From a virus (lineage: Duplodnaviria > Heunggongvirae > Uroviricota > Caudoviricetes), in IMG/VR virus record IMGVR_UViG_2684622579_000002: a stretch of DNA of 16,029 bases. One strand, written 5' to 3'. Made by a program: the position numbers and the translations under genes. Shown here piece after piece: positions 1 through 16,029 of this stretch; within the stretch, counting starts at the first letter, position 1; each line of letters opens with the position of its first letter. The notes beneath the pieces are model-generated. The model was given only the letters and a program-made list of their open reading frames with translations, was not told the DNA's origin and did not search any database.

Positions 1-555
1 ATGCTTATTGGCTATGTACGTGTATCAACAAATGACCAGAATACCGATCTACAACGTAATGCGCTGAACTGTGCAGGATGTGAGCTGATTTTTGAAGACA
101 AGATAAGCGGTACAAAGTCCGACAGACCAGGACTGAAAAAGCTGCTCAGGACATTATCGGCAGGTGACACGCTGGTGGTCTGGAAACTGGACCGACTGGG
201 GCGCAGTATGCGGCATCTTGTCGTGCTGGTGGAGGAGTTGCGCGAACGAGGCATCAACTTTCGTAGTCTGACGGATTCAATTGATACCAGTACCCCAATG
301 GGGCGCTTTTTCTTTCATGTGATGGGTGCCTTGGCTGAAATGGAGCGTGAACTGATTGTTGAACGAACAAAAGCTGGACTGGAAGCAGCTCGCGCACAGG
401 GACGAATTGGTGGACGTCGCCCCAAACTTACACCAGAACAATGGGGGCAGGCCGGACGATTAATTGCATCAGGCGTTCCTCGCCAGAAGGTGGCGATCAT
501 CTATGATGTTGGTATATCGACACTGTATAAGAAGTTTCCGGTCGGAGATAAATGA
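1..555 (+). CDS. pin: Serine recombinase, DNA invertase of the Pin/Hin/Gin family (complete, 184 aa)
   Basis: N-terminus MLIGYVRVSTNDQ with the catalytic Ser context typical of resolvase/invertase enzymes; conserved RLGR and GRFFFHVMGALAEMERELI motifs; C-terminal HTH-like region (IASGVPRQKVAIIYDVGISTLYK). ATG at 1, TGA at 553-555. Confidence 0.85.
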   Translation: MLIGYVRVSTNDQNTDLQRNALNCAGCELIFEDKISGTKSDRPGLKKLLRTLSAGDTLVVWKLDRLGRSMRHLVVLVEELRERGINFRSLTDSIDTSTPMGRFFFHVMGALAEMERELIVERTKAGLEAARAQGRIGGRRPKLTPEQWGQAGRLIASGVPRQKVAIIYDVGISTLYKKFPVGDK

Positions 556-596
556 AACCGTAGCACGTCGTATGCAAGAAGATCGTGCTGCGGTTT
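555..596. repeat. Hairpin repeat copy A (about 13 bp stem with one G-T wobble, 16-nt loop tcgtatgcaagaagat) between convergent pin and GIY-YIG genes
   Basis: Positions 558-580 (ccgtagcacgtcgtatgcaagaa) match 1582-1605 (ccgtagccacgtcgtatgcaagaa) except for one inserted base. Stem arms 555-567 and 584-596 are complementary. Confidence 0.6.
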
Positions 597-615
597 ATGC
601 TTATCACTTAAAGAC

Positions 616-1485
<870 letters not shown>

Positions 1486-1580
1486 CTAAGCCTTTGAATT
1501 TACATAGTACAAAAAAGATACTTTTCCTCATAATGTGAATTAATTTTATGTTTCGTTTGATGATTGGACCGGTCTCGAAA

Positions 1581-1614
1581 CCCGTAGCCACGTCGTATGC
1601 AAGAACGTGCTACG
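1581..1614. repeat. Hairpin repeat copy B (9 bp stem with one bulge, 13-nt loop tcgtatgcaagaa) upstream of the GIY-YIG gene
   Basis: Direct-orientation near-identical copy of the element at 555-596; stem arms 1584-1592 and 1606-1613. Confidence 0.6.
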
Positions 1615-1885
1615 ACTGGCTGGTGAACTTCCGATAGTGCGAGTATTGAATGATTTCCAACTGTTATCGATTTTGCGTATTTTTTGCATGAGAGGATTTT
1701 TACCTCCTCCCGCCGATCCTCCATGGCTTTACGCCTGTGTCTCTGGTCTGCTATGTGCCAATAGCGGACATTGCTAACATTATCTAATACACAACAAAAA
1801 ATGTCAGTCTATATGATATCATCTACTGTCTTTTAAATTCCCCACCTGTCTCAGTTATTAGTGTTAGATAAGGAATCAAAAAATT

Positions 1886-2560
1886 ATGAGAGCATATAAA
1901 TTTAGGTCGGCTTCTCAAATAGCATTTACCCTAGATATAATTTTTAATCGTAGGCTTTTTTGCTCTGACTGGAAAATGTTGAATGACCCAATGGAAGGGA
2001 TGTTTGTTTTCTCTCATCAAACATCTGATGGTTACGACTATAAAAAAGAAATTCAGCAGATAATAGAAGAAAAGAAACGGCTTAAGGTTTGTTCTCTTTC
2101 AGCTACATATGAGTCTCATTTACTTTGGGCTCACTATGCTGGGGGGTTTGATGGTTGCGCTATCGAAATTGAAATCCCAGACAATCATCACAGTATTAAA
2201 CAAATTGAATATAGAGGTGTATTTGCAAATTTAGCAATGCCCAATATTTATAGTCCTGATGAACTTGCTAACCAAGTTTTATCCTCTAAATATCGAGAAT
2301 GGGAATACGAACAGGAAGTTAGGATTTTGCAAACGAATGAGTGGTTTTACTTAGATAAACCAGTTCGACGAGTAATAGCAGGGCATAGAATGCCTTCGGC
2401 ATTATTTGAAGCCATGAATATAATATGCAACTCGATGGGGATTGAATTTTGCCGTACTGGAATTGGTGATGAGGGGATTGATGCCGATTATGTTGAGCCC
2501 TCAAAAATTCTAACGCCGAATAATCATCTTGACTGGGATGTACTAAAAAATGACCGATGA
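1886..2560 (+). CDS. Hypothetical protein, DUF2971-like (224 aa)
   Basis: ORF with ATG at 1886, AGGA 11 nt upstream, AT-rich codon usage. LWAHYAGG and EWEYEQEVRIL motifs resemble what I recall of the DUF2971 family; this is unverified. Confidence 0.5.
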   Translation: MRAYKFRSASQIAFTLDIIFNRRLFCSDWKMLNDPMEGMFVFSHQTSDGYDYKKEIQQIIEEKKRLKVCSLSATYESHLLWAHYAGGFDGCAIEIEIPDNHHSIKQIEYRGVFANLAMPNIYSPDELANQVLSSKYREWEYEQEVRILQTNEWFYLDKPVRRVIAGHRMPSALFEAMNIICNSMGIEFCRTGIGDEGIDADYVEPSKILTPNNHLDWDVLKNDR

Positions 2561-2699
2561 ATTAGAGATTTATATGGTTAGCAGAGTGTAAGGCTCAAGA
2601 TTCCCACGCTCAATAACCAATTGATTGTGAATAACTTTCACCCACAATTGCTCGATATGAAACTATGAGCAATTGTGATGTAAATGTATGCAACAGGTT

Positions 2700-3326
2700 T
2701 TATATCTTATTCCCAAGTATTAACTGTGTTGAGCGAGCCATAATTCTAAATATAAATGGCATACCCTCTGTTAGCTCATCGAGTGTTGGCGTTCGCCTGC
2801 TTGCTTCCAAAAGTATTGAACGCAGAAACTCAACTTCTGGATCACATGCAATTTCTTCATCCAATGCCTTAAGTTTGCCTTTTATTTCTTTTATCTCTGA
2901 CAAACTATGGTTGAGGGTTTCACTTCCCTTTATTTCTGAAAGTATACGTCTTTCATGGTAATTAAGTTGCTCACGGAAAAACAATGCCATACTGGCTTTC
3001 TTTACTAAAAGCTCCATTTCCTTTCTTTTTTTCTCAAGATCTAAGATTTCTTCTTGAGTTGAGTTTTTATTCGTTTTTAGGGATTTTAACTCACTAATAG
3101 TCTTAGTTATGGACTCTAATGAAGTGGCCTCAAGCTGTTCTAAATCTGACTGTGTAATAGCAGGCTTCGACAATGAATAGATGCAAACAATAGTCATTAC
3201 AAAACCTACAATAGCCATCCCATTTAAATAAATTGGCAGTTCCAATTTATTTAAATACGCAAATAAACCACCTATAATGAAATAAGCCATACTTAACAAA
3301 ACCAGTACAGTACAAAACCGCCTCAT
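2700..3326 (-). CDS. Membrane-anchored coiled-coil protein (208 aa), function unknown
   Basis: Two N-terminal hydrophobic segments (VLVLLSMAYFIIGGLFAYL and GMAIVGFVMTIVCIYSL) followed by a charged heptad-like region (EEILDLEKKRKEMELLVKK). GAGG SD 6 nt upstream of the ATG at 3324-3326. Confidence 0.55.
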   Translation of the reverse strand: MRRFCTVLVLLSMAYFIIGGLFAYLNKLELPIYLNGMAIVGFVMTIVCIYSLSKPAITQSDLEQLEATSLESITKTISELKSLKTNKNSTQEEILDLEKKRKEMELLVKKASMALFFREQLNYHERRILSEIKGSETLNHSLSEIKEIKGKLKALDEEIACDPEVEFLRSILLEASRRTPTLDELTEGMPFIFRIMARSTQLILGNKI

Positions 3327-3754
3327 TCTAACCTCGTTAAATTTTTTTAGTTTATATGGTTAACCTACTAAAACCTTGTTCCCAGCATTTCGAGCAGGAA
3401 CTTTACGTTCCTCACTTGAGCAAGCTACTGCGGCAACACAATATCTTAACTTAATAAACTTAACTAGCAAGCTACTCATAACGTCCGCTCTTCGCTCATA
3501 ACAGACATAAACTTCAGTTATGGCATAAAGGTATGCATGCTGGGTGGGGAAAGTATGAAGGAAAAGAAGACTGCTGCGCCGTTTGTCGTCACGTTTATCT
3601 TCATTGGCTATGCAAGTCGTAATACAAGGTGGGACAAAACTGAGACACATAAGGCCTCGCAATGGCTTGCAAGGCTTTACATGTTTTGATGTAGTGGGAC
3701 GTGTGAGCGCAGTGTTGATGGGGTAATGCTTTGAATTAGAAGCGGATTCTTATA

Positions 3755-3800
3755 ATTCGTAATGCGAAGGTCGTAGGTTCGACTCCTATTATCGGCACCA
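3755..3800 (+). other. 46-nt 3' fragment of a tRNA-Thr(CGU)-like gene (anticodon loop through CCA) lacking the 5' half: probable att core or direct repeat at an island junction
   Basis: attcgtaatgcgaaggtcgtaggttcgactcctattatcggcacca contains an anticodon loop with CGT, a T-arm GGTTCGACTCC and an acceptor 3' strand TATCGGC-A-CCA. No complementary GCCGATA acceptor 5' strand is present upstream, so this is not an intact tRNA. Confidence 0.7.
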
Positions 3801-3964
3801 TCACCTAGTTTTCCCAAGTCAACCCACATCAACAAAATCATTTAAAAACATATATATTACGTTATTTTCATACGTTTGAGGTCAACCCTTGTCTCTTGAA
3901 ATCAACACGCGGTTGGGGGCACAATCAGGGGCATGTTCTGTTCGGTCTAGGAAATGTGCCCCCA

Positions 3965-5155
3965 ATGATGCTGAATGCCCGCAAGGTTGAAGCTGCGAAA
4001 GGAAAAGAGAAGAGCTACAAGCTGTTTGATGGAGGTGGCCTATACCTTCAGGTCGAACCTAATGGCTCGCGTTACTGGCGTATGAAATACCGTTTTGCTG
4101 GTAAAGAGAAACGATTGTCCTTTGGTGTTTATCCAACAGTCACACTTGCTGATGCCAGACAAAAACGAGAAGACGCGAAGAAACTACTCGCAGCAGGTGA
4201 AGATCCCGGCGAAGTCAAAAAAGCCAAAAAGCAGGCTTTAAATGCAGCGATTGAGACACTTAACCCATTCAGAGAAGTGGCGTTAGAGTGGCACAAAATG
4301 AAATCACCCAAATGGTCTGAGGGCTATGCTTCCGACATCATTGAGGCATTCGAGAAAGACATTTTCCCGCATATTGGGCACAGACCTATAGCTGATATTC
4401 AGCCCCTTGAACTGCTTGAAGTTCTGAGGTTGATAGAAGCTCGAGGCGCTATGGAGAAAGCGAAGAAAGTCCGTCAGCGATGCGGTGAAGTTTTTCGCTA
4501 TGCCATCGTAACGGGTAGGGCAATCTACAATCCGGCACCGGATCTTGCCAGTGCGATGCAAGGACATGAAGCAGTCCACTATCCATTCCTCAAAGCCAAC
4601 GAACTACCGGAGTTCTTTAATGCCCTTAATTCTTATTCAGGAAGTCCAATTGTATTGTTGGGGGCGCATTTACTTATCCTGACAGGTCTACGAACTGGAG
4701 AACTACGAGCAGGTGAGTGGCGAGAGGTGGATTTTGATAATGCGGTGTGGGAGATCCCAAAAGAACGTATGAAAATGCGTAGGAGCCATATTGTCCCGTT
4801 GTCAAAACAAGCATTATCCCATCTCAAAAGTTTGAAAGAACTAACTGGGAACTACCCGCTGATGTTCCCTGGACGCAACGATCCTAGCAAATTTATGAGT
4901 GAAGCAAGCATTAATCAGGTGTTTAAACGTATTGGATATGCAGGGCGTGTTACGGGGCATGGTTTCAGGCATACGATGAGTACAATCCTACATGAGAAAG
5001 GATTTAACAGCGCTTGGATTGAAACCCAGCTTGCTCATTCGGACAAAAACTCTATTCGTGGAATTTATAACCATGCCCAATATCTCGAAGGGAGAAGAGA
5101 AATGATGCAATGGTATGCTAATTATTTATCTGAGCTAATTGGTACTCATAAATGA
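3965..5155 (+). CDS. int: Tyrosine recombinase, P4-type integrase (about 396 aa)
   Basis: N-terminal MLNARKVEAAKGKEKSYKLFDGGGLYLQV is the characteristic P4-integrase N-terminal arm; C-terminal catalytic region has HGFRHTMST and a downstream tyrosine context (IRGIYNHAQY). Immediately follows the tRNA 3' fragment. Start placed at ATG 3965/3968 rather than the TTG at 3896 given in the ORF track. Confidence 0.9.
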   Translation: MMLNARKVEAAKGKEKSYKLFDGGGLYLQVEPNGSRYWRMKYRFAGKEKRLSFGVYPTVTLADARQKREDAKKLLAAGEDPGEVKKAKKQALNAAIETLNPFREVALEWHKMKSPKWSEGYASDIIEAFEKDIFPHIGHRPIADIQPLELLEVLRLIEARGAMEKAKKVRQRCGEVFRYAIVTGRAIYNPAPDLASAMQGHEAVHYPFLKANELPEFFNALNSYSGSPIVLLGAHLLILTGLRTGELRAGEWREVDFDNAVWEIPKERMKMRRSHIVPLSKQALSHLKSLKELTGNYPLMFPGRNDPSKFMSEASINQVFKRIGYAGRVTGHGFRHTMSTILHEKGFNSAWIETQLAHSDKNSIRGIYNHAQYLEGRREMMQWYANYLSELIGTHK

Positions 5156-5976
5156 ATATTTTAAAAATTAATAATACTGATTCTCTGCTCAGAGATTACT
5201 ACCAGTTGGATGAAGCTTCAGAAAAAATTGGTTGTAGTGAAAAGGATATACTCTGGTTTGCCAGAGAACGAGATGTAGAGCTATGCATGGAATTCCATGA
5301 TGATGAGTATGATGTTTCATGTGGTTTGAAGATTGATGGTCAAATGGATGAGTTCTTATCTAATCTGAAATATTTACCACGAGATAGAAATGGCAATATT
5401 ATGTTGTCAGACTTAAGTTCTATAAGAATCCCTGATGAAGATAATTTAATTGATAAAAATGGTTTTATTCGATGTTTCATATCCGGTTTATGGGCTGTTG
5501 ATTATGAATATAAAGATCTGTTAGTTAAGCATGAGGGGCAACCGGATTCTTGGCCTATTCATTTTCTACTGGCGGGTACGCCTAATATAAATTGTAAGGT
5601 AATTCTTTATGTAAATTATGATGAAAAAGAAAATTATTATCTTTTTGAGGTTTTGTGGATTACAAAGGTACAGATTCAAAAATTCATTGATATAGTCTTA
5701 TGCGAACAAAAGCGGATAAAAAACGCCAATAAATATAAATCACAATCTGAGGCGCAAAAACAAAAACATGCTGTTCCTCGAGCTGAAATACTCATGGCTA
5801 TTATTTCGCTCTATCATCGTGATATGAGGCTAAGAAGAGAGAGTCCAGCAGCGATAGCTGATTATCTTTTTCAACATGCCAGTGAGTTCTGGCCTAAGAC
5901 CGGAGAACCGCCTTTGAGCTATGATACTGTTGTTAGTTTGCTACGTAGTTGCATGAAAAACATTAAGTTTAACTAA
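5152..5976 (+). CDS. Hypothetical protein (274 aa), AT-rich, translationally coupled to the integrase
   Basis: ATGA overlap with the integrase stop (ATG 5152, TGA 5153-5155); AT-rich codon usage unlike the GC-rich replication module; no motif I can assign. Confidence 0.6.
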   Translation: MNILKINNTDSLLRDYYQLDEASEKIGCSEKDILWFARERDVELCMEFHDDEYDVSCGLKIDGQMDEFLSNLKYLPRDRNGNIMLSDLSSIRIPDEDNLIDKNGFIRCFISGLWAVDYEYKDLLVKHEGQPDSWPIHFLLAGTPNINCKVILYVNYDEKENYYLFEVLWITKVQIQKFIDIVLCEQKRIKNANKYKSQSEAQKQKHAVPRAEILMAIISLYHRDMRLRRESPAAIADYLFQHASEFWPKTGEPPLSYDTVVSLLRSCMKNIKFN

Positions 5977-6101
5977 ATATTAACAATTATTGTGGCTAAT
6001 GATTTTGGATTTTTTTCATTAGTCACATTTTTCTCATTTATAACCTATGTTTTAATTTTCCGTGTTGAAGCCAATAGACTTAGATAAACGGAGAATGATG
6101 A

Positions 6102-6392
6102 ATGTTATCTAAACATGATAATACTACTTTGCAACGACCTTCAATGGATTCTCTGATCGATATGAAGTTTATTACTTCCGATTGTTTATTAAGTGATAAA
6201 TGGATTTATCGATTGATTTCTCTGAATCGCTTTCCAAAACCTATAAAAATAGGTCGGATGTCACGATGGCGCGCTGCTGATTATTATAAGTGGCGAGATG
6301 GGTTTGAAGAAAACTCAGGTCAACATTTTGAGGGAATGAGAAATAAGGCAAGAGCAATTAATAAAGGGAATAGATTATCACCTACTCCCTAA
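6102..6392 (+). CDS. alpA: AlpA-family phage transcriptional regulator (small DNA-binding protein)
   Basis: IYRLISLNRFPKPIKIGRMSRWRAADYYKW resembles the AlpA/phage regulatory protein HTH signature; GGAG SD 8 nt upstream of ATG 6102. Shorter starts at 6144 or 6162 are possible. Confidence 0.7.
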   Translation: MLSKHDNTTLQRPSMDSLIDMKFITSDCLLSDKWIYRLISLNRFPKPIKIGRMSRWRAADYYKWRDGFEENSGQHFEGMRNKARAINKGNRLSPTP

Positions 6393-6424
6393 GCCTTAAT
6401 TGATAGTTAGTAATATTTAACTGA

Positions 6425-6598
6425 TTAGCCTTTAGGGTCAATCCCGCGTGATTGGAGTTCTTTGCGTAAAATTCTTTTAATCCAAGTTGCCAACGCGCTA
6501 TCTCCATCTTTGCGCATTTCGTTTTCGAGTTGCAACCTAAAATCGTCGGTAAGACGCATTTGGAATGGTGGAGAACGTTTCTCTTGTGGTGTTGACAT
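6425..6598 (-). CDS. Arc/MetJ-type ribbon-helix-helix DNA-binding protein (57 aa), absent from the supplied ORF track
   Basis: Hand-translated minus-strand ORF MSTPQEKRSPPFQMRLTDDFRLQLENEMRKDGDSALATWIKRILRKELQSRGIDPKG; the PPFQMRL segment resembles the Arc N-terminal beta-strand motif (PQFNLR). Start codon overlaps a palindromic operator. Confidence 0.6.
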   Translation of the reverse strand: MSTPQEKRSPPFQMRLTDDFRLQLENEMRKDGDSALATWIKRILRKELQSRGIDPKG

Positions 6599-6638
6599 GG
6601 TAATTACCCTAGAATATGATGACTACATGGTAATTACC
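6595..6638. promoter_or_regulatory. Two copies of the 14-bp repeat ACATGGTAATTACC, each containing the perfect palindrome GGTAATTACC, 30 bp apart: putative operators
   Basis: Palindromes at 6599-6608 and 6629-6638; the first overlaps the start codon of the Arc-like gene, the second lies in its promoter region, within the divergent intergenic region 6599-6729. Confidence 0.55.
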
Positions 6639-6666
6639 ATTGTAAGTATAGTTCGCTTGTAAAAGC

Positions 6667-6701
6667 AATGCCCGATTGTGCGGGAACACAAATCGGGCAT
6701 T
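6667..6701. promoter_or_regulatory. 14-bp-stem inverted repeat (AATGCCCGATTGTG / CACAAATCGGGCATT, loop cgggaa) in the leader of the replication operon
   Basis: Arms 6667-6680 and 6687-6701 are complementary with one bulge; located 29 nt upstream of ATG 6730; no U-tract follows. Confidence 0.45.
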
Positions 6702-6729
6702 TAACCAACCGTTATAAGAGGTAACGAAG

Positions 6730-6906
6730 ATGGCTAAACAGAAGTGTACCTGGTTATTTGCGGCGATCAACCGCAGTCAACGCAATGCCCGTCCTGTGAT
6801 GTTAAGGATCACCGCAGATAACGAGCGGTCAGCGCGGCGCAGACTTGCCCCGGACTATGTACTGAGCTTTGCCGGGCGCATTCCCTGCGGAGGTGAACAT
6901 GCGTAA
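6730..6906 (+). CDS. Small protein (58 aa), first gene of the replication operon; possibly Icd-like
   Basis: Hand-translated MAKQKCTWLFAAINRSQRNARPVMLRITADNERSARRRLAPDYVLSFAGRIPCGGEHA; AAGAGG SD 8 nt upstream; stop overlaps the next gene start (ATGCGTAA). Family assignment is from memory and weak. Confidence 0.5.
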   Translation: MAKQKCTWLFAAINRSQRNARPVMLRITADNERSARRRLAPDYVLSFAGRIPCGGEHA

Positions 6907-7258
6907 TTATCCGCACCCCGGCGAACGCTGGCAGCATGAACGTGGCTGGACGGTCACGATTATCCGATTAATAGAAGCCTCGCCCTCTGTGGCGCTGGTT
7001 AATCCTGAATTCAGCTGTGAAGTGCTGATACGTCATGACAGCGACAACCAGCTTTCTTCCTGCCCTCTGGCATGGTTTGAACAGCGGTATACGCGCCTGT
7101 TTGATGTACCGCTCTTTAAGCCTGCACCAGCTCCTGCAGGCGGTAGTGGTTCCGGCCCGCTGACACTGCATCCGTCTGTGCTATTTATCCGCTGGCGGGA
7201 GCGTAGCATATGGCGTTCTGCTGAGCCTGACGACGGTCACTATTCAAAGTTTCTCTGA
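6899..7258 (+). CDS. Hypothetical protein (120 aa)
   Basis: ATG at 6899 preceded by GGAGGT; GC-rich codon usage consistent with neighbours; the ORF track extended it to an upstream alternative start at 6869. Confidence 0.5.
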   Translation: MRNYPHPGERWQHERGWTVTIIRLIEASPSVALVNPEFSCEVLIRHDSDNQLSSCPLAWFEQRYTRLFDVPLFKPAPAPAGGSGSGPLTLHPSVLFIRWRERSIWRSAEPDDGHYSKFL

Positions 7259-7289
7259 CAAAATACCGCTGAAAACGGAGTAATCCACG

Positions 7290-7574
7290 ATGAATATTTC
7301 AAACGGGCACAACGGTGCTCAGGGCCACACTTTGCCTGAAAAACACAATACCGGTGCTTTTGCCTATGGGTTGTCAGAGGACAGTTTCGGAAAGCTGACC
7401 CGCGCAAGAAATGCCTGCGACATGCTCCAGCTTCTCTTTTCTGAATACCCGTCTCAGGCCGGAGCACTGGACGCTGGCTGTGCGCATGGTGTCGCCGCGC
7501 TGATGGAGTACCTGCTGGCAGATTTGACGGATATTGCACACAGTTGCGCACTGATTGAAGGAGGTGCCAGATGA
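7290..7574 (+). CDS. Hypothetical protein (94 aa)
   Basis: ATG 7290 with GGAG 8 nt upstream; stop overlaps the next start. Confidence 0.5.
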   Translation: MNISNGHNGAQGHTLPEKHNTGAFAYGLSEDSFGKLTRARNACDMLQLLFSEYPSQAGALDAGCAHGVAALMEYLLADLTDIAHSCALIEGGAR

Positions 7575-7954
7575 ACCAGCCGCAGGTTTCCATTTTCCCG
7601 GCAGAAATGACCACCGCGCTTTACCGGCGGGCTATTGCTTCAGCATGGCGGCAGAAAATGCTGAACGAAACTGGCAGTGATCAGTATGGTCCGCACAGCC
7701 TGACGGTGGAGCGTATTGAAATGGCCATTGCGCTGCATATCGAGTGCGTACTGATTAACGAGTACGGCGAAGTGCAGGGCGCCGCTACCGCGCTGGCACT
7801 GCTGACTGACATGCTGGAGCCGTCACTGCTGACCGCGCCGCCGGTACTGACCGCGCGCGGCTGTGAAGTGATGGCGGAGATGTACCGCACGCTTCCGGCG
7901 GCCTTTGATGACTTCTGCAGTACCGGTGTGACGTTGTATGAGGGGGAAGTATGA
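7571..7954 (+). CDS. Hypothetical protein (127 aa)
   Basis: ATG 7571 with GGAGGT SD; ATGA overlaps at both ends indicate translational coupling into the primase gene. Confidence 0.55.
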   Translation: MNQPQVSIFPAEMTTALYRRAIASAWRQKMLNETGSDQYGPHSLTVERIEMAIALHIECVLINEYGEVQGAATALALLTDMLEPSLLTAPPVLTARGCEVMAEMYRTLPAAFDDFCSTGVTLYEGEV

Positions 7955-10623
7955 CAATACGGACGGTTACGCAGATTTCAGCCGCCGCACGGGGGAAATG
8001 GCCCGTTATTCTGCAGATGCTGCGTATTGATGTACCTGAAAACGGCAGGCACGGTCCCTGCCCGAAATGTGGGGGCAAGGATCGTTTTCGCCTTGATGAC
8101 CTTGACGGGCGCGGGACGTGGATCTGCAGCCAGTGTGGCAATGGTGACGGTCTGGATCTGGTTAAGCTCGTAACCGGTTACAGCGTCAGAAAGGCTGCGC
8201 AGGAGGTGGCGCAGGTGCTTAATGTGCCGGATGTGCAGGAACTGCCTGTTAAGCCTGCCAGACAAAAAGCCCCTAAACGAGACATGGGTCTTACCGTGGC
8301 GGCGCTGATGAAAGAGAGCCACACGGGAGAAAGCGCCTATCTGACAGGAAAAGGGTTCGCCGGATACCCGGCCTCTCTGACCGGAAGCGTGCAGCATATC
8401 AGCGGTAAGGATTTTCCTGCCGGTTCCCTGCTGTTACCACTCACGACCAACACCGGAGCCGTGACCGGTGCACAGCTTATCGCCCCGACGGGTGAAAAAA
8501 GCATACTGCCCGGCAGCACGATGAAAGGCGCGTTTGTGTCGCTCAGCCCGTTACCGTCTGAACCACCGGTACAGGTGGTGATTACCGAAGGTTACGCTAC
8601 GGCGCTGACGGTAAGCCAGCTCACTGCCGGATGCGTAGTGGCTGCCATATCTGCGGGCAACCTGCCCAATGTGGCGCAGTCGCTGCGGGCACGCTGGCCT
8701 GAGGTAAAAATTATCATCGCCGGTGATAACGATTTTCAGGACGGGGGTGAGAATCCCGGCAGAGCCTTTGCTGAACGGGCGGCAAAAGCTGTTGGCGGCT
8801 GGATGACGCTGCCACCAGGAGAGATTAAGGCTGACTGGAATGACTTTCATCGGGAGCACGGTATTACCCGTGCCCGTGAAGCCTTTCGCAACGGTCTGGT
8901 ACTGTGCGGGGAAGGCCGCACGCAACTGCCGCACGGGTTCCGTCTTACCCAGGAATATCTCTGGTATGAAAAGCAGGTACAGCGCAACGGTGAGACGGAG
9001 ATCCAGAACGTCAAAATATGCAGCCCGCTGCGCGTGACGGCAATTACCTGCGATGCCGATGGCGGTAACTTCGGACGACTGCTGGAATGGGAAGATACGT
9101 GGGGTGAGTGTCGCCGCTGGGCGATGCCAATGGAAATGCTGAGCGGCAGTGGTGAGGAACTGCGCCGGGTACTGCTGGTTAACGGGCTGTCTTATATCAG
9201 CACCACCGGTGAGGCACGCGCACGCCTGATGGAATATATCTCACTGTGTAAACCGGAACGCCGCGTGACCTGCGTCAGTCGTACTGGCTGGCATGGTCAG
9301 GTTTACGTCCTGCAGGATGAGGTCAGCGGTGAAGGTGCAGAGGGTGTCATTCTCCAGACCACTTCCGTGCAGGGGCGTGATTTCCGCGTGTCGGGCACAA
9401 CAGAGGAATGGCGGGAGCATGTATCCCGCTACTGTACCGGCAACTCCCGCGTGGCATTTGCTGTCAGCCTGGCCTTTGCTGCACCACTGTTACGGCTGGT
9501 TGGTATGGACGGCGGCGGCTACCACCTCAAAGGGGAATCGACAGACGGTAAGACCACCACCATGAAAGCGGCAACCTCCGTCTGCGGCGGGCCTGACTAC
9601 TGGCAGACATGGCGGGCCACCGGCAACGCGCTGGAGGGATGCGCCAGCCGCCGTAACGATGCCGCCATGATGCTTGATGAGATCCGGGAAGTTGACGGAC
9701 GCGAGGCAGGCAATATCGCCTACATGCTGGCAAACGGTCAGGGCAAGGGCCGTGCCGGTACGGACGGTGAGCTGCGTACCCGTAAGCAGTGGCGCCTGTT
9801 GTTCTTTTCAACTGGCGAGTTGTCTCTGACCGAACATGCGGCAAAGGCCGGTGAGCGTACTTTTGCCGGGATGGAAGTCAGGATGATCCAGATCCCCAGC
9901 GATTCCGGGAAGTTTGGCGTTTTTGAGGAGCTGCACGGCTTCGACAGCGGCAAGGCTCTGGCAGAGCATCTTGAATGGGCCACGTCCTGCTACTACGGTT
10001 CGCCGTTCCGGGAGTGGCTGAAAGCACTGACCGCTGATCTTAACGGACTAACGGCACAGGCAAAATCGCTGATGAAGGAATATGCTGCCGCCCTGACTCC
10101 GAAAGATGCAGGCAATCAGGTGGGCCGGGCTGTGAACCGCTTTGCACTGGTGGCGATGGCAGGTGAACTGGCAACCCGTCTGGGTATCACCGGCTGGCCT
10201 GAGGGTGAAGCACTGCGGGCAACCCGCGTCTGCCTGAACGCATGGCTGAAAGATCGCGGGCACACCGCCAATCAGGAAGATATCGCCGCACTGGAGCAGG
10301 TTCGCAGTTTCTTTACCGCGAATCAGTACAGCCGCTTTGCAGACTGGTATGACGAGCGCAACCGCCCCGGCAATATGGTGGGCTGGCGCAGGGTGGAGAA
10401 AGGCAGTACCGCGCAGGGCACGGAAGCTGTCACTACGTTCTATGTCATGCCGTCCGGCTGGAAAGAAATCTGCAGGGGATTTGACCCGCGCAAGGTGGCG
10501 CGTCTGTGCGCAGATCGTGGATACCTGCTGCCCTCCACTGATGGCAAACTCCAGACAACCATTCGCCCGCCAGAGATGAATCCCCGCAGGCTCTATGTCT
10601 TCAACAGCGAGGTGCCGGGTTAA
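7951..10623 (+). CDS. P4-alpha-like primase-helicase (890 aa): zinc ribbon, TOPRIM and C-terminal P-loop NTPase domains
   Basis: N-terminal CPKCGG...CSQCG zinc-binding motif; TOPRIM-like VVITEGYATALTV and IIIAGDNDFQD; Walker A-like GESTDGKTT. GAGGGGGA SD upstream of ATG 7951. Confidence 0.9.
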   Translation: MTIRTVTQISAAARGKWPVILQMLRIDVPENGRHGPCPKCGGKDRFRLDDLDGRGTWICSQCGNGDGLDLVKLVTGYSVRKAAQEVAQVLNVPDVQELPVKPARQKAPKRDMGLTVAALMKESHTGESAYLTGKGFAGYPASLTGSVQHISGKDFPAGSLLLPLTTNTGAVTGAQLIAPTGEKSILPGSTMKGAFVSLSPLPSEPPVQVVITEGYATALTVSQLTAGCVVAAISAGNLPNVAQSLRARWPEVKIIIAGDNDFQDGGENPGRAFAERAAKAVGGWMTLPPGEIKADWNDFHREHGITRAREAFRNGLVLCGEGRTQLPHGFRLTQEYLWYEKQVQRNGETEIQNVKICSPLRVTAITCDADGGNFGRLLEWEDTWGECRRWAMPMEMLSGSGEELRRVLLVNGLSYISTTGEARARLMEYISLCKPERRVTCVSRTGWHGQVYVLQDEVSGEGAEGVILQTTSVQGRDFRVSGTTEEWREHVSRYCTGNSRVAFAVSLAFAAPLLRLVGMDGGGYHLKGESTDGKTTTMKAATSVCGGPDYWQTWRATGNALEGCASRRNDAAMMLDEIREVDGREAGNIAYMLANGQGKGRAGTDGELRTRKQWRLLFFSTGELSLTEHAAKAGERTFAGMEVRMIQIPSDSGKFGVFEELHGFDSGKALAEHLEWATSCYYGSPFREWLKALTADLNGLTAQAKSLMKEYAAALTPKDAGNQVGRAVNRFALVAMAGELATRLGITGWPEGEALRATRVCLNAWLKDRGHTANQEDIAALEQVRSFFTANQYSRFADWYDERNRPGNMVGWRRVEKGSTAQGTEAVTTFYVMPSGWKEICRGFDPRKVARLCADRGYLLPSTDGKLQTTIRPPEMNPRRLYVFNSEVPG

Positions 10624-10649
10624 GGCTTTGCGTGAGTCTTATTTATTAA

Positions 10650-10845
10650 GGGTAACAGGTGAAACAGGTGGAACAACCGTATTTTACAGGGCTGAATCTG
10701 TTCCACCTTCTGAAATAGTGAGGTGGAACAGATGTAACGCCAGCCAATCCGCTGTTCCACCTTGTTACCCGCGATGTTCCACCGGTGCAGTGTATATAAA
10801 TGCTTTATAAAACAAATGGGTAACACATGTTTCACCTGTTACACC
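10650..10845. repeat. Iteron cluster: five copies of the 9-mer GGTGGAACA/TGTTCCACC in alternating orientation, bounded by a 15/16-bp inverted repeat, with an adjacent AT-rich tract
   Basis: GGTGGAACA at 10667-10675 and 10722-10730; TGTTCCACC at 10699-10707, 10753-10761 and 10775-10783; the forward-reverse pair recurs with 55-bp periodicity. Outer inverted repeat GGTAACAGGTGAAACA (10651-10666) versus TGTTTCACCTGTTACA (10828-10843). AT-rich tract gtgtatataaatgctttataaaacaaatg at about 10790-10817. Confidence 0.65.
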
Positions 10846-10933
10846 GCATCAGGGACATAAAGCAGACTGAAACAGAGGGCATTTTTATCTGGCTGGCTTT
10901 CATAGCCACGTCTGAATAACCGCAAGCGCCCGT

Positions 10934-10951
10934 TGTACCAGCCACCACACA
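10934..10951 (+). promoter_or_regulatory. TGT-N12-ACA dyad (TGTACCAGCCACCACACA), candidate Ogr/Delta-dependent late promoter element for the sid/psu/ogr operon
   Basis: The motif centre lies about 80 bp upstream of ATG 11024, compatible with the roughly -55 placement of this element in P2/P4 late promoters. Confidence 0.4.
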
Positions 10952-11023
10952 CTGAGCACCGATAGTGTGCTTGTGTCAGCCACGACACAATTGACGTAAC
11001 GAACCAACCCGACAGGAGAAGTC

Positions 11024-11767
11024 ATGAACAACACCGCAGTGAATAACAACCTTTCCACTTTTCCGGCTGTAACGCAGCGGGCACTGGAAACCATGAACAC
11101 AGCCAGAAACGCATGGCTTGAAGCACGTCGTCAGCAGAAAGCGGCAGCGGATAATATTGCGACAATCCGCCAGCGTCGCGCTGAAATGGAAGCCACGACG
11201 AACACACTGAATGAGGAGTGGCGCACGCTGTTTCGTGAAAGTCAGGGCGTGGTCTCAAAGGAAATGAAAAAACTGCGCACGGAAATTGCGCTGGGACGAG
11301 AAACTCTTGAGGATTTTGATGAGCTGCTGGAGGCTCAGGAAAGCGAAAATGCACTTTTGCCGCAGAAAGCTGCGGAATTAGCCGGAAAGTATATCCACGC
11401 GCATAACATCCTTGTGGATATTCGCGCAAAACAAATCTGGGAAGATTTTATGCAGTCGCATGGAAAAGCGCTTATTCAGACGCTGAGCCTGCTTAAATCC
11501 ACAATGGGCCGGGAAGCCAGTGCCGTTGTGGGTGTGGTGAATTCAGTTAATGACCCGGACACAGTGCTGAAAGACTTTATTCATAAACATATCACCAGAC
11601 CGGCTCTGGCTAACGATGCGATGCCTGAGCAGGACCCGGTGTTTAAACTGGCGGGAGTTGCCCCGGATTATGCGGCGCGTCTGGATTTCAGTAATCAACT
11701 CTCTCCGGCAGCTATGCATAAAATTAAGGTTCGTCAGGAACTTGCTGAGAAGGAGAAAGCAGTATGA
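11024..11767 (+). CDS. Sid/Psu-family protein (247 aa); by size and position probably a Sid-like capsid size-determination scaffold
   Basis: GGAG SD 5 nt upstream; shares NAWLEARRQQKAAAD and DFMQSHGKAL motifs with the downstream Psu-like protein; ATGA coupling to the next gene. Confidence 0.6.
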   Translation: MNNTAVNNNLSTFPAVTQRALETMNTARNAWLEARRQQKAAADNIATIRQRRAEMEATTNTLNEEWRTLFRESQGVVSKEMKKLRTEIALGRETLEDFDELLEAQESENALLPQKAAELAGKYIHAHNILVDIRAKQIWEDFMQSHGKALIQTLSLLKSTMGREASAVVGVVNSVNDPDTVLKDFIHKHITRPALANDAMPEQDPVFKLAGVAPDYAARLDFSNQLSPAAMHKIKVRQELAEKEKAV

Positions 11768-12315
11768 CGGCCCGAGGCACGCCTGACCAGGCACTTACCA
11801 GTTTTCGGAATGCCCGTATTCTGTGGGCCGGACATAATGAGAGCCGAAAAGCCGTTGAACAACAGATAACATCTCTCCTCGCTGCCACAGAAAAACCAGC
11901 AGATTATGCCCGACAGCTCGAATTACTGCGGGAACGTCTGGATGTGCTGAAATGGCAAATTAACTGTGCTGCGCGCGAATGCATTTACTCGCAGCATTTA
12001 CTGATGGAGGCCTGCACAGAAGCCGCTCTCAGCAATTTTATGCAGGCGAATGGGGCAGCCCTGACATCTGCACTGGCTCCGTTCCTGAAGGGGCGCGGAG
12101 GGGTTGACGTTGCGTCCCGTATATTACGCAGTGCTCTGGTTCGCCAGCTGGCAATAACACCGCCTGAAATTGCCGGGGATTATCGTGAGATCCTGGATGA
12201 ATCCGGTTTGATGCCTGACCCCGGGATGATTCGTGATTGCCAGGGTTCTTACACCCCGGCACAACATCTGCGTTTTCAGCAACGCCTGAATGACATTAAC
12301 GATATACAGGAGTGA
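11764..12315 (+). CDS. psu: Psu-like polarity suppression / capsid decoration protein (183 aa)
   Basis: LKWQINCAARECIYSQH and FMQANGAALTSALAPFLKG match my recollection of P4 Psu (VRKWQVNQAAGRYI and FMQQHGTALAAALAP); similar length to P4 Psu. Confidence 0.65.
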   Translation: MTARGTPDQALTSFRNARILWAGHNESRKAVEQQITSLLAATEKPADYARQLELLRERLDVLKWQINCAARECIYSQHLLMEACTEAALSNFMQANGAALTSALAPFLKGRGGVDVASRILRSALVRQLAITPPEIAGDYREILDESGLMPDPGMIRDCQGSYTPAQHLRFQQRLNDINDIQE

Positions 12316-12320
12316 TATTA

Positions 12321-12593
12321 ATGGCACTTAAATGTCCGGAATGCGGTACAGTTGCACACGCCAGAACAGCAGCCTATGAAGCTCCGTCAGTTAAACGCTC
12401 GTGGTATCAGTGCCAGAATCTGGAATGTTCCTGCACATTTACGGCACTGGAGAGTGTGGATAAGATAATCATGAAACCCCGGCGCAATGAACAGCTATCA
12501 GACAAAGCACAATCCCCGGAAAAACAACAGCAAACGCTCAATCGCTATGGCTCCGCGTCAAAACTGTCAAGCCGTCAGCAGATTCCTGTCTGA
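12321..12593 (+). CDS. ogr: Ogr/Delta-family zinc-finger late transcription activator (90 aa)
   Basis: CPECG...HART...YQCQNLECSCTF matches the Cys4 pattern of P2 Ogr (CPLCQ...HART...HQCQNVNCSATF); AGGAG SD 8 nt upstream of ATG 12321. The ORF track started it at the GTG at 12312. Confidence 0.8.
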   Translation: MALKCPECGTVAHARTAAYEAPSVKRSWYQCQNLECSCTFTALESVDKIIMKPRRNEQLSDKAQSPEKQQQTLNRYGSASKLSSRQQIPV

Positions 12594-12613
12594 TTAGAAA
12601 AAAACGCCCACGT

Positions 12614-12640
12614 AATCCCGGTCGAGTACCGGGATTTTTA
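12614..12640 (+). terminator. Rho-independent terminator after the ogr-like gene
   Basis: aatcccggt / accgggatt 9-bp stem with a 5-nt loop, followed by a T-run (gggattttt) 20 nt after the stop codon. Confidence 0.65.
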
Positions 12641-13050
12641 ACACCTTTTCCCTGGCTGGCCTGAGAGCGCATGAGTGCATGTCTATGGCGCATGAAAATG
12701 CATGAGCCTTATGCACCTTTTTTGAGGCGAAAACCTTTGTGTGGTGGTATCTGAGACGATTTATGGCATGCATGAAAACCAGTCTGTTAAGCGAAGCGGG
12801 CAGGCGTGCGGGGCTGCCCGCGATAGCACTGAAATCAACAGGTAAAACTATTTTTTATTAGTAGTGTAAACTGGGAGCGAACGGACTCTGTCATGCTGTA
12901 TCATCCTGTAATGATCAATCTCACTGGTGTCTGTATAGATGTCAACCAGTTTCGACGGCTGTGTCTAACTTAAAATTAGAGCTTAATCAAGTTTTTCCTC
13001 GAGAATACTTTTAAAAGACAATGAGTTATGAGAAAGTGGAGGCTGTCACG

Positions 13051-13079
13051 TTGGTCATATGTAACACTCCACGTAATCT
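13051..13079 (+). promoter_or_regulatory. Putative sigma70-type promoter (TTGGTC - 17 nt - TAATCT) for the three-gene operon
   Basis: -35-like TTGGTC 13051-13056, 17-nt spacer, -10-like TAATCT 13074-13079, about 44 nt upstream of ATG 13123. Identified by eye only. Confidence 0.3.
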
Positions 13080-13122
13080 TAATCGCTTTGTAAATGTTGA
13101 AGTTAATTAATAGGGAAAACTG

Positions 13123-14082
13123 ATGCTAACCAGGGCTGAAAATATAAGAAAAATCACAAGCTATTTAGCTATTCTCTCAAGAGAGGTTGAGATTAGTGCC
13201 TCCCTCAATCTTTTGGATATCAACGTTCAAGCGGAATCTTTTTATAGAGATTTCTTAAACTTATGTTATGGATATAATTTAAGAAATACCAATAGTGAAG
13301 AGCAAAACTACCAAGCAATAGATCTTGCTGATGAAGATCGGAAGATTGCTATACAAGTAACTTCAACTTCTGACTTGGGAAAAATTAAGAATACAGTTGA
13401 TGGATTTATAAAAAGTAAGCAATATGAAAAATATGATAGACTAATTGTACTGAATATAACTGAAAAGAAAAAGCACAGATTGAAAGAGTATGGAATAGCC
13501 GGGTGCTATGTAATTAATATCAAAGATGATGTATGGGATTATAAGGATATAATTAGAAAGATAAACGATTTGAATGATTGTGATATATCAACAATATGCT
13601 CATTTTTGGAACGTAATATTAATACTAAAGCTGCTGATAAACCGCCGAAAGAAGTCACAACTATGTTTGCGATGATTGAATTATTGAGTGATGATGCTCA
13701 CCCATTGGCAGGAAATGGATTTATTGAAGAGCCTAATCCTGAAAATAAAATATATAAAAGATTTTCAGATTATTCAGAGCGGTTGATTGGCTTATATACT
13801 GGGTTAGCTCCATTATATAGTGGGATATTTAAGTCAATAAAAGAACAGAGCGATATTGGTATCGTAAGGTACCAAAAGATGAGTTTGTATTTAGAGTCAT
13901 TTAGTGATAAGGTCTTAAGAAGCCATGGTGGAGATCCTATCTTGGCGCTTAATTATTTAAAAGAATATTTTTCTAAACAACTGAGCCAGAGAAATGTAGA
14001 TTACGATGAAACAGCTATCAAATTTTTCTTAATTGAGAATTTAATTGCATGTAACGTCTTTCCTAATTCGGAGATTCTTTGA
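13123..14082 (+). CDS. Hypothetical protein (319 aa), putative effector of a three-gene system; N-terminal region possibly SMEK-like
   Basis: AGGGA SD 6 nt upstream; AT-rich codon usage. N-terminal LNLLDINVQAESFYRDFLNLCYGYNL...IAIQVTSTSD resembles what I recall of SMEK-domain proteins of ABC-three-component systems; unverified. TGATG overlap with the next gene. Confidence 0.65.
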   Translation: MLTRAENIRKITSYLAILSREVEISASLNLLDINVQAESFYRDFLNLCYGYNLRNTNSEEQNYQAIDLADEDRKIAIQVTSTSDLGKIKNTVDGFIKSKQYEKYDRLIVLNITEKKKHRLKEYGIAGCYVINIKDDVWDYKDIIRKINDLNDCDISTICSFLERNINTKAADKPPKEVTTMFAMIELLSDDAHPLAGNGFIEEPNPENKIYKRFSDYSERLIGLYTGLAPLYSGIFKSIKEQSDIGIVRYQKMSLYLESFSDKVLRSHGGDPILALNYLKEYFSKQLSQRNVDYDETAIKFFLIENLIACNVFPNSEIL

Positions 14083-14330
14083 TGTTAAGTTTTTTTTCGA
14101 AAGATGAGGATTTGACAAAATCCCCTCCTGTTGTAGGGGCTAAAATTCTTAATTTATTTGACGAAACAAAAAAAGAAAAAATTAGTATTTTCGATTTAGC
14201 AAAAGAATTAAAGAAAAACAACTCTCTAGGAGTGCGTGCAATTTATTTTGGAATGGTCTTTCTTTATACTCTTGATCTTATCGATTTCGATGAGCCATAT
14301 GTGATAAATAAAAATGTTAAGAATAAATAA
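14082..14330 (+). CDS. Small protein (82 aa), putative middle/adaptor component
   Basis: ATG 14082 overlaps the upstream TGA (14080-14082); its 3' end overlaps the ATPase start by 17 nt; AT-rich. Confidence 0.55.
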   Translation: MLSFFSKDEDLTKSPPVVGAKILNLFDETKKEKISIFDLAKELKKNNSLGVRAIYFGMVFLYTLDLIDFDEPYVINKNVKNK

Positions 14331-16029
14331 ACTATATAGCATACCAGAATCTTTTGAGCCAGTAAGCTTTGATAGTGGCATCAATATCATCTTAGGTGAA
14401 AAAGATGTTTCATCTAACAAAACTAATGGAGTGGGTAAAACTCTTTTAATAGAGTTTATTAATTTTTGTTTATTAAAAGAATTTAAGTCGAGTAGAGTTT
14501 CTAAAATTCCTCATTCTGATTTTTCGAAAGACATTTTGATATGCCTTGATTTTAATATTGATAATATTAACATTATATCCCAGCGTTCTATTGGGAAACA
14601 TAATGAGCCAACACTTGTAATAAATGGAAAAACAATAGAGTTTAGTGGATTAGATGATGCGTTATCTCATTTAAGCAATCTTATCTTTAAGAATAGTAAG
14701 GGTATACTTCATCCATCATTTAGAGCGATGCTGGGGCCTCTGATACGCGATGAACGATCTGAATTTAAATCTATTGTTGAGTGCTTCGACACAAAATTAC
14801 ATATACCTGCTGACTATACTCCTCATCTTTATTTGTTAGGTATTGATATTGCTCCCTATAAAGAGGCAAAGATTTTACAACGAGAAATAGATGATTTATC
14901 AACTACAAAAAATAAAATAAAGAGAGATATTGAATTTCTGACGGGAAAAAAAATTAGTTCTGCAAAGGCAGAGGTTAATGATCTTAAATCAAAAGTTGAA
15001 CATATCAGAAACGCTATGGATGCATTTGATAGCGATAGCAGTTATGAACTTATCAAAGATGAAGTAGAAGAATTAGAAAGTTCTTTAGAAGAGTTGCGGA
15101 ATAAAAGAACAATACTTAAGTTAGAGCTTTCAAGAATAAATGCTCTCGTTGGTGAAGTATACATAAATGATGATGAAGTAGTTGAAATTTATAATAAATT
15201 TAAAGTTGGATTAGGTGATGCTATCAAAAAAGAACTTAATGATGTTATTTCATTTAAGAAAAAAATAGATCACTTCCAAAACACTTTGTTAAATACGCGA
15301 AAAGAAACATTACTTTCTGAATTGCGTAAGATATCAGATAAGCTATATACAGTAAATAGACTTTATAAAGAAAAAGCTAGTGTTTTTGAGCAGGCGGGGG
15401 GGTTTAAAAGCCTGAAAATTTTAATAATGACTTATCAGAAAAAGTTAGAGGAGTATTCACAGTTATCTTCATTGCTTAAAAAATTTGAAGATTTCGATTC
15501 TAAATGGAAAGTTAAGAAGTCAGAACGCTCTTCTATGATAATTTCGTTAGATCTTTCTATTATGGATAACGAAAAAACGATTGAATCTTTTGAGGAAACC
15601 ATTTTATCAATCCATGAATATGTTTTTGGAAATAGAAAGTGTTCTTTCGAAATTAAGGCGACAGAGAAGAAAGAAACTATCTCAATGGATTTAAGAATTG
15701 ATGATGACGGTAGTCATAGTAATGAGCGAGAAAAGGTTTTCTTTTATGATTTGGCTCTTTTACTTACAGAAGAAACGTTTCGACGTCACCCTGGATTATT
15801 AATTCATGATAATATTTTTGATGTGGATCAAGATACATTAATTAAAAGCTTGAATTATTTGGCAGAGAAATCCAGTTGCTTAAATGATGCACAATATATT
15901 TTGACGTTAAATAGCGACAAAATTAGTGAAATTGATAAAAGAGATTTGAAACTAGATATTAACTTCTATAAGCGAGCTTCGTTAACTAAAATAAATAGAT
16001 TCCTGGGAAGGCATTATCAAGAAATATAA
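14314..16029 (+). CDS. ABC/SMC-type coiled-coil ATPase (571 aa; the ORF ends exactly at the window edge)
   Basis: N-terminal P-loop region NIILGEKDVSSNKTNGVGKTLLIEF; long charged helical middle (EAKILQREIDDLSTTKNKIKRDIEFL...); C-terminal Walker B-like GLLIHDNIFDVD. TAA at 16027-16029. Confidence 0.8.
   Translation: MLRINKLYSIPESFEPVSFDSGINIILGEKDVSSNKTNGVGKTLLIEFINFCLLKEFKSSRVSKIPHSDFSKDILICLDFNIDNINIISQRSIGKHNEPTLVINGKTIEFSGLDDALSHLSNLIFKNSKGILHPSFRAMLGPLIRDERSEFKSIVECFDTKLHIPADYTPHLYLLGIDIAPYKEAKILQREIDDLSTTKNKIKRDIEFLTGKKISSAKAEVNDLKSKVEHIRNAMDAFDSDSSYELIKDEVEELESSLEELRNKRTILKLELSRINALVGEVYINDDEVVEIYNKFKVGLGDAIKKELNDVISFKKKIDHFQNTLLNTRKETLLSELRKISDKLYTVNRLYKEKASVFEQAGGFKSLKILIMTYQKKLEEYSQLSSLLKKFEDFDSKWKVKKSERSSMIISLDLSIMDNEKTIESFEETILSIHEYVFGNRKCSFEIKATEKKETISMDLRIDDDGSHSNEREKVFFYDLALLLTEETFRRHPGLLIHDNIFDVDQDTLIKSLNYLAEKSSCLNDAQYILTLNSDKISEIDKRDLKLDINFYKRASLTKINRFLGRHYQEI

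Follow-up and report, generated by a model that had tools for sequence, protein, structure and literature searches.

A 46-nucleotide 3′ part of thrW as the probable hybrid attachment site of an SfV/SfI-type prophage and a P4-like satellite

Introduction

The tRNA gene thrW, located beside proA, is the integration site of a group of phages that includes SfI, SfII, SfV, SfX, and P22. The attP core of SfI consists of 46 bases and is identical to the core of attL and attR as well as to the cores of SfII, SfV, SfX, and P22; in such phages, the cargo genes gtrABC are located immediately upstream of attP (PMC3636060). Occupancy of thrW can be serial. In experiments in which SfI infected an SfX lysogen, SfI integrated at attL, and the result was two tandem prophages at thrW with an att site between them (PMC3306764). 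A different class of mobile elements, the P4-like satellites, is defined by a gene set and gene order comprising an integrase, alpha primase, psu, delta, sid, and alpA (PMC8628076). The defence hotspot of these satellites is located between psu/delta and the att site (PMC9122126).

Here, we analyzed a 16,029-nucleotide stretch of DNA assigned to a virus of the Caudoviricetes (IMG/VR record IMGVR_UViG_2684622579_000002), hereafter referred to as the window, in which a partial tRNA-Thr gene at positions 3755-3800 separates two types of DNA. Compared to the thrW sites of SfI, SfII, SfIV, SfV, SfX, and P22, this locus has the same 46-base core, and the arm on its cargo side is 97.7% identical to that of SfIV. 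The layout is also the same, i.e., cargo slot, attP, int, and xis in the phage, with int and the cargo at opposite ends of the prophage. The locus differs from those of the Sf phages in three respects: the cargo slot contains genes for PD-T4-3 and PDC-S31 together with an open reading frame (ORF) of 208 aa instead of gtrABC, the host is Escherichia coli instead of Shigella flexneri, and the core is followed on its right side by a satellite and not by the chromosome. Compared to the SfI-SfX tandem at thrW (PMC3306764), we observe the same serial pair with a partial-tRNA att site in between; by contrast, the second element here is a P4-like satellite with an integrase of another family and a shorter, nested core. 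Because the integrase family differs and the core is shorter and nested, the shared site would be a hybrid of two recombination systems. Finally, compared to the P4-like satellites of Enterobacterales (PMC8628076, PMC9122126), the satellite in the window has the same gene set (integrase, alpha primase, sid-like, psu, delta, AlpA-like, and Icd-like) and variable defence cargo in the same place, between delta and the att site; it likewise integrates at the 3′ end of a tRNA, with a short direct repeat as boundary. P4 integrates at leuX, whereas the satellite lineage described here uses thrW, and its cargo is SMEK/DUF2326 (PDC-M68B).

Results

Positions 3755-3800 are identical to the 3′ part of thrW

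The sequence of window positions 3755-3800 on the plus strand is ATTCGTAATGCGAAGGTCGTAGGTTCGACTCCTATTATCGGCACCA. This sequence is identical at 46/46 positions to positions 31-76 of thrW, which encodes tRNA-Thr(CGU), as annotated in E. coli VG12A2 and NADC1036. These positions of thrW extend from the last base of the 5′ strand of the anticodon stem through the anticodon loop, the variable loop, the T arm, and the 3′ strand of the acceptor stem to the CCA. The original prediction, which was made from the letters of the window, described this stretch as the 3′ part of a tRNA-Thr from the anticodon loop through CCA, and both this description and the coordinates are correct.

The prediction also held that the 5′ strand of the acceptor stem is absent. 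Identity to thrW breaks sharply at 3754/3755, and the 30 positions upstream of the breakpoint, with 9 scattered matches, are unrelated to thrW. ARAGORN detected no complete tRNA (0 genes) in the whole window. The Rfam tRNA model scored the fragment at 14.2 bits compared to a gathering score of 29, and the alignment was limited to the T arm and the 3′ strand of the acceptor stem. The complete cloverleaf of a functional tRNA gene, including the acceptor 5′ strand and the D arm, is thus lacking at 3755-3800. Folding of the upstream region into a complete tRNA had been named as the outcome that would speak against the prediction; neither ARAGORN nor Rfam found such a structure. The 47-mer starting at 3754 occurred once in the window and in 0/200 shuffled sequences. 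A second copy of the core was not found within the window because the window stops short of the attR of the satellite.

The 46 bases at 3755-3800 are not only those of the published phage core (PMC3636060) but are also present as the attP core in the genomes of SfIV and phi458. Based on these matches and the identity to thrW, we annotated 3755-3800 on the plus strand as the core of an SfV/SfI-type phage att site and as the attR of a prophage. The idea that the fragment is an att core therefore stands, given its identity to the published core; what changes is the owner of the core, which is the prophage, while the repeat that belongs to the satellite has a length of only 19 nt.

The DNA to the left of the core resembles the right end of an SfV/SfI-type prophage

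The window opens with a plus-strand gene for a pinE-like serine invertase of the Pin/Hin type (positions 1-555; Pfam Resolvase, 1.3e-51, and HTH_7), the invertase of a prophage tail-fibre switch. Because the thrW prophages of NADC1036, QDFD216, and Sanji have an annotated pinE at their right ends, this gene marks the late-gene end of a prophage. It is followed by three genes that we classified as prophage cargo. The minus-strand gene at 616-1440 codes for a member of the PD-T4-3 defence family with a GIY-YIG domain (Pfam LEM-3_GIY-YIG, 2.4e-14; PADLOC PD-T4-3, 2.7e-140), and the plus-strand gene at 1886-2560 encodes the candidate defence protein PDC-S31 (PADLOC PDC-S31, 3.4e-82; weak match to DUF2971). 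The third, at 2700-3326 on the minus strand, was taken from the ORF list and encodes a protein of 208 aa in an AT-rich variable slot; it had weak PADLOC matches only and no Pfam match. The GC content is 0.34-0.44 at 501-3500 and 0.51 at 1-500. The earlier description of 1-3700 as AT rich is, thus, roughly right for the larger part of this region but does not apply to its first 500 bp. Among the 5426 complete E. coli genomes that made up our comparison set, window 1500-3475 (GC 0.34-0.38) had no megablast match, while both adjoining segments are common. We assigned the cargo in 1500-3475 to the prophage because it is placed between pinE and a conserved arm.

This arm, located at 3475-3754, is a phage attP arm that in the free phage faces gtrA or other cargo. 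It represents a conserved module because the matches to the junction across many E. coli genomes begin at 3475-3494 irrespective of the cargo that precedes it. The arm is also conserved in SfIV and phi458. Specifically, window 3630-3800 is 97.7% identical over 172 nt to the gtrA-int intergenic region of SfIV, which comprises attP arm and core, and window 3480-3800 is 90.1% identical to phage phi458. The attP of SfIV is split at the core, in that its left arm and core align with the window, while its core and right arm are 99.7% identical to the NADC1036 sequence that comes after the intact thrW and leads into the phage int. As judged from these alignments, the split is the mark left by site-specific recombination, and the window contains the attR of such a prophage.

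In relatives, pinE and the gene for the GIY-YIG protein come after the tail-fibre genes of a lambdoid prophage with an HK97-type head and a contractile Mu-like tail, i.e., a prophage of the SfV/SfI/e14 type. In NADC1036, the right end of this prophage, consisting of pinE, the GIY-YIG gene, and the arm, matches window 1-~1500 and 3475-3754. The proposal that the region to the left of the fragment is a second element or a prophage end is supported by this match together with the identity to the SfIV arm, and we conclude with high confidence that this DNA is the right end of a lambdoid prophage of the SfV/SfI type.

We also observed a terminator-like hairpin on the minus strand of the arm (3646-3685; −21.5 kcal/mol; z, −4.26). 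Its position past the phage int and across attP would correspond to that of the sib/tI retroregulation site of lambda. Moreover, phage 21 and lambda-like phages have DNA beside attP to which window 3483-3689 is 88% identical.

The DNA to the right of the core is a P4-like satellite with a nested 19-nt core

As stated in the original prediction, an integrase gene is located directly downstream of the fragment. This gene encodes a P4-type tyrosine integrase (3965-5155; Pfam Arm-DNA-bind_3, Phage_int_M, and Phage_integrase; RefSeq annotation of identical genes); the ORF is open from a TTG at 3896, and the start annotated in RefSeq is the ATG at 3965. It is followed by the early and replication region of the satellite at 5152-10623, and all genes of the satellite in the window are on the plus strand. 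Based on Pfam and the RefSeq annotation of elements that are 99-100% identical, this region includes a hypothetical ORF and an Icd-like ORF, a gene for an AlpA-like HTH protein (6102-6392; weak Pfam match), an ORF for a DUF5375 protein (7571-7954), and the gene for an alpha-type primase with TOPRIM and DUF927 (7951-10623). Further downstream are a sid-like gene (11024-11767; weak Psu match), psu (11764-12315; Pfam Psu, 1e-44), and ogr/delta (12312-12593; Pfam Ogr_Delta, 1e-15). The defence hotspot at 13123-16029 contains AT-rich cargo, i.e., genes for a SMEK-domain protein (Pfam SMEK_N, 5e-46), a protein of 83 aa, and a DUF2326/PDC-M68B protein (Pfam DUF2326, 4.4e-19; PADLOC PDC-M68B, 1.4e-48). 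Integrase, alpha primase, psu, delta, sid, and alpA are, accordingly, all present in the conserved order by which P4-like satellites are recognized (PMC8628076).

The boundaries of the satellite were defined using VG12A2. In this genome, the intact thrW downstream of proA is immediately followed by an element that is 100% identical to window 3755-16029. At its far boundary, a 19-nt direct repeat, CTCCTATTATCGGCACCAT, is present (19228-19246 of the VG12A2 locus, L003) and is followed by native chromosome. The element, thus, also has the integration at a tRNA 3′ end and the short direct repeat as boundary that characterize such satellites. VG12A2, which has the satellite alone beside the intact thrW, also provides the comparison with a strain that lacks the prophage at this site, as had been suggested with the original prediction. 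In the window, we annotated the 19-nt sequence nested in the fragment, at 3783-3801 on the plus strand, as the core of the satellite and here as its attL, based on the direct repeat in VG12A2 and an 18-nt copy in NADC1036. This core consists of the last 18 nt of the tRNA and one T. The attR of the satellite, as placed in VG12A2, is located ~180 nt past the end of the window. Because the core of the satellite has a length of at most 19 nt, the remaining 27-28 nt must have a source other than the satellite. The phage-type and satellite integrases have no meaningful similarity beyond a weak match in the catalytic domain.

The DNA just inside the attR of the satellite is wholly different between VG12A2 (L003, 19180-19246) and a second, otherwise near-identical satellite (L004, ~34250-34320). 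Because this inner flank differs right up to the 19-nt core, the variable hotspot extends to the core on that side. Both the prophage slot (616-3326) and the satellite hotspot (13123-16029) contain defence-type cargo adjacent to the att site that the two elements share. The cargo found at these two places in relatives comprises an AAA ATPase, a restriction-modification system, a gene of the AraC family, DRT3, or an AAA ATPase combined with an S8 peptidase.

The hybrid junction is present in other E. coli genomes

None of the 5426 complete E. coli genomes matched ≥80% of the window as a single genome. The best genome matches form a mosaic in which VG12A2 accounts for the right part of the window with 100% identity and NADC1036 for some of the left part. 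In NADC1036, we observed the order proA, intact thrW, int, lambdoid prophage, pinE, cargo, the 46 nt, P4-type int, and satellite, followed by the 18-nt copy of the satellite core, which is one G short, and then by a LysR fragment and paoD. In this genome, the intact thrW is located ~42 kb upstream of the junction on the same strand. The expectation that an intact tRNA gene lies further to the left on the same strand, thus, holds in the closest complete genomes.

The exact hybrid junction, consisting of phage arm, core, and left end of the satellite, was detected in 17 of the 5426 complete genomes. In all 17, the query matches at least one additional place, which is what the presence of an intact thrW besides the junction would predict. 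An arrangement in which thrW is directly followed by an SfV-type int arm was detected in 1301 genomes, and the same satellite, with 99-100% identity, is widespread alone at intact thrW.

Two other arrangements were observed at this site. In Sanji (L008, 14126-14171 onward), another integrase island comes after the phage arm and the 46-nt core; it encodes an HsdM-like methyltransferase and an AAA ATPase of the ORC/CDC6 type. Many clinical E. coli genomes match the junction in the same way as Sanji, i.e., over the phage arm and the core and for 37 nt past the latter, with Sanji's being the only island that was examined. A30 (L009, 2641-2702 and 16002-16018) has a three-element array at the thrW site in the order phage arm, 46-nt core, a different P4-like satellite, a 17-nt core, and an SfV-type integrase pseudogene that is truncated and into which IS1 has inserted.

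Discussion

The data presented here support that positions 3755-3800 are, with a high degree of probability, a hybrid attachment site common to two mobile elements that are independent of each other and both have the 3′ end of thrW as their target. In the mechanism that we propose, each of the two elements would carry a copy of this end, and integration would regenerate an intact tRNA gene on the left and leave a partial copy behind on the right. The phage tyrosine integrase would recombine within the 46-nt core, giving rise to an intact thrW at the left end of the prophage and the 46-nt attR at its right end, while the P4-type integrase of the satellite would use only 3783-3801. Recombination by the phage integrase at this type of site is documented for SfI and SfX (PMC3636060, PMC3306764). 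Because the core of the satellite nests in that of the phage, a single 46-nt segment can be the attR of the phage and the attL of the satellite. The expected full array would have the order proA, thrW, prophage, 46 nt, satellite, 19 nt, and chromosome. The intact thrW and the satellite attR that belong to the window would, as placed from relatives, be located outside it. Each element would retain its own two sites and might, therefore, be excised independently. Excision of the phage would put thrW directly against the satellite, which is the state observed in VG12A2.

Two other explanations for the fragment were considered. If the window contained a single element, the fragment would be the satellite's own attL from which the 5′ half of the tRNA gene has been deleted, and the DNA to the left would be chromosome or an unrelated island. 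The location of the integrase gene immediately downstream of the fragment agrees with this explanation, but the repeat of the satellite comprises 19 nt and not 46, the breakpoint falls exactly on the boundary of the published phage core (PMC3636060), the attP arm of SfIV matches the left flank with 97.7% identity, and relatives have pinE and tail genes upstream. We, therefore, regard it as highly improbable. The 46 nt were also considered as the satellite's own core, and this was rejected, as the lone satellite is bounded by just 19 nt. Even less credible is that the fragment arose by chance or is a decayed tRNA pseudogene unrelated to site-specific recombination. Apart from the absent 5′ half, nothing speaks for such an origin, while the 46/46 identity indicates that there is no decay, none of the 200 shuffled sequences matched, and the same boundary recurs in many genomes as well as in genomes of free phages.

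Within the hybrid site, the structure of the array alone does not discriminate between the two possible orders of arrival. We suggest that the satellite was probably resident first and that the phage then entered the regenerated intact thrW. In the opposite order, the prophage would have been resident first, and the satellite would later have integrated into the attR of the prophage rather than into an intact thrW. This order would yield an identical final structure, the 46-nt fragment includes the complete 19-nt core of the satellite, and the attR of a lone prophage would retain the native sequence downstream of the core. Nevertheless, three observations favor the satellite as the first resident and make the opposite order the less likely one, although a realistic possibility. 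In the experimental precedent at thrW, the newcomer SfI entered the attL of the SfX lysogen (PMC3306764). The same satellite is widely found alone at intact thrW. Also, the array in A30, in which a decayed phage remnant is farthest downstream, fits with successive entry at the intact tRNA gene. A30 is the one case that we found of the reverse order, satellite and then phage, in a search that was not a systematic count, and its consistency with entry at the intact tRNA is suggestive only.

The promoter region of the satellite integrase gene abuts the core. It is conceivable, but in our view doubtful, that the hybrid site couples the two elements, e.g., if phage induction or read-through from the cargo altered expression of the satellite integrase, or else that thrW arrays grow strictly by entry at the intact tRNA. 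If arrays did grow strictly in this way, the order of the elements would equal the order of their arrival and would be usable as a record of infection in E. coli lineages.

Earlier work has already described this site, both families of elements (phage and satellite), and the occupancy of thrW in tandem, and a literature search for thrW, P4-like, and tandem in combination found nothing. The tandem integration described here is an ordinary, textbook case, and this site adds no new biology. Its value is mainly for annotation, as the boundaries can be given with base-exact precision: the prophage ends at 3800, and the core of the satellite starts at 3783. The defence genes on either side of the core belong to different vehicles. 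The locus is, thus, a clean example of nested att cores that are used by two unrelated integrases at one tRNA gene.
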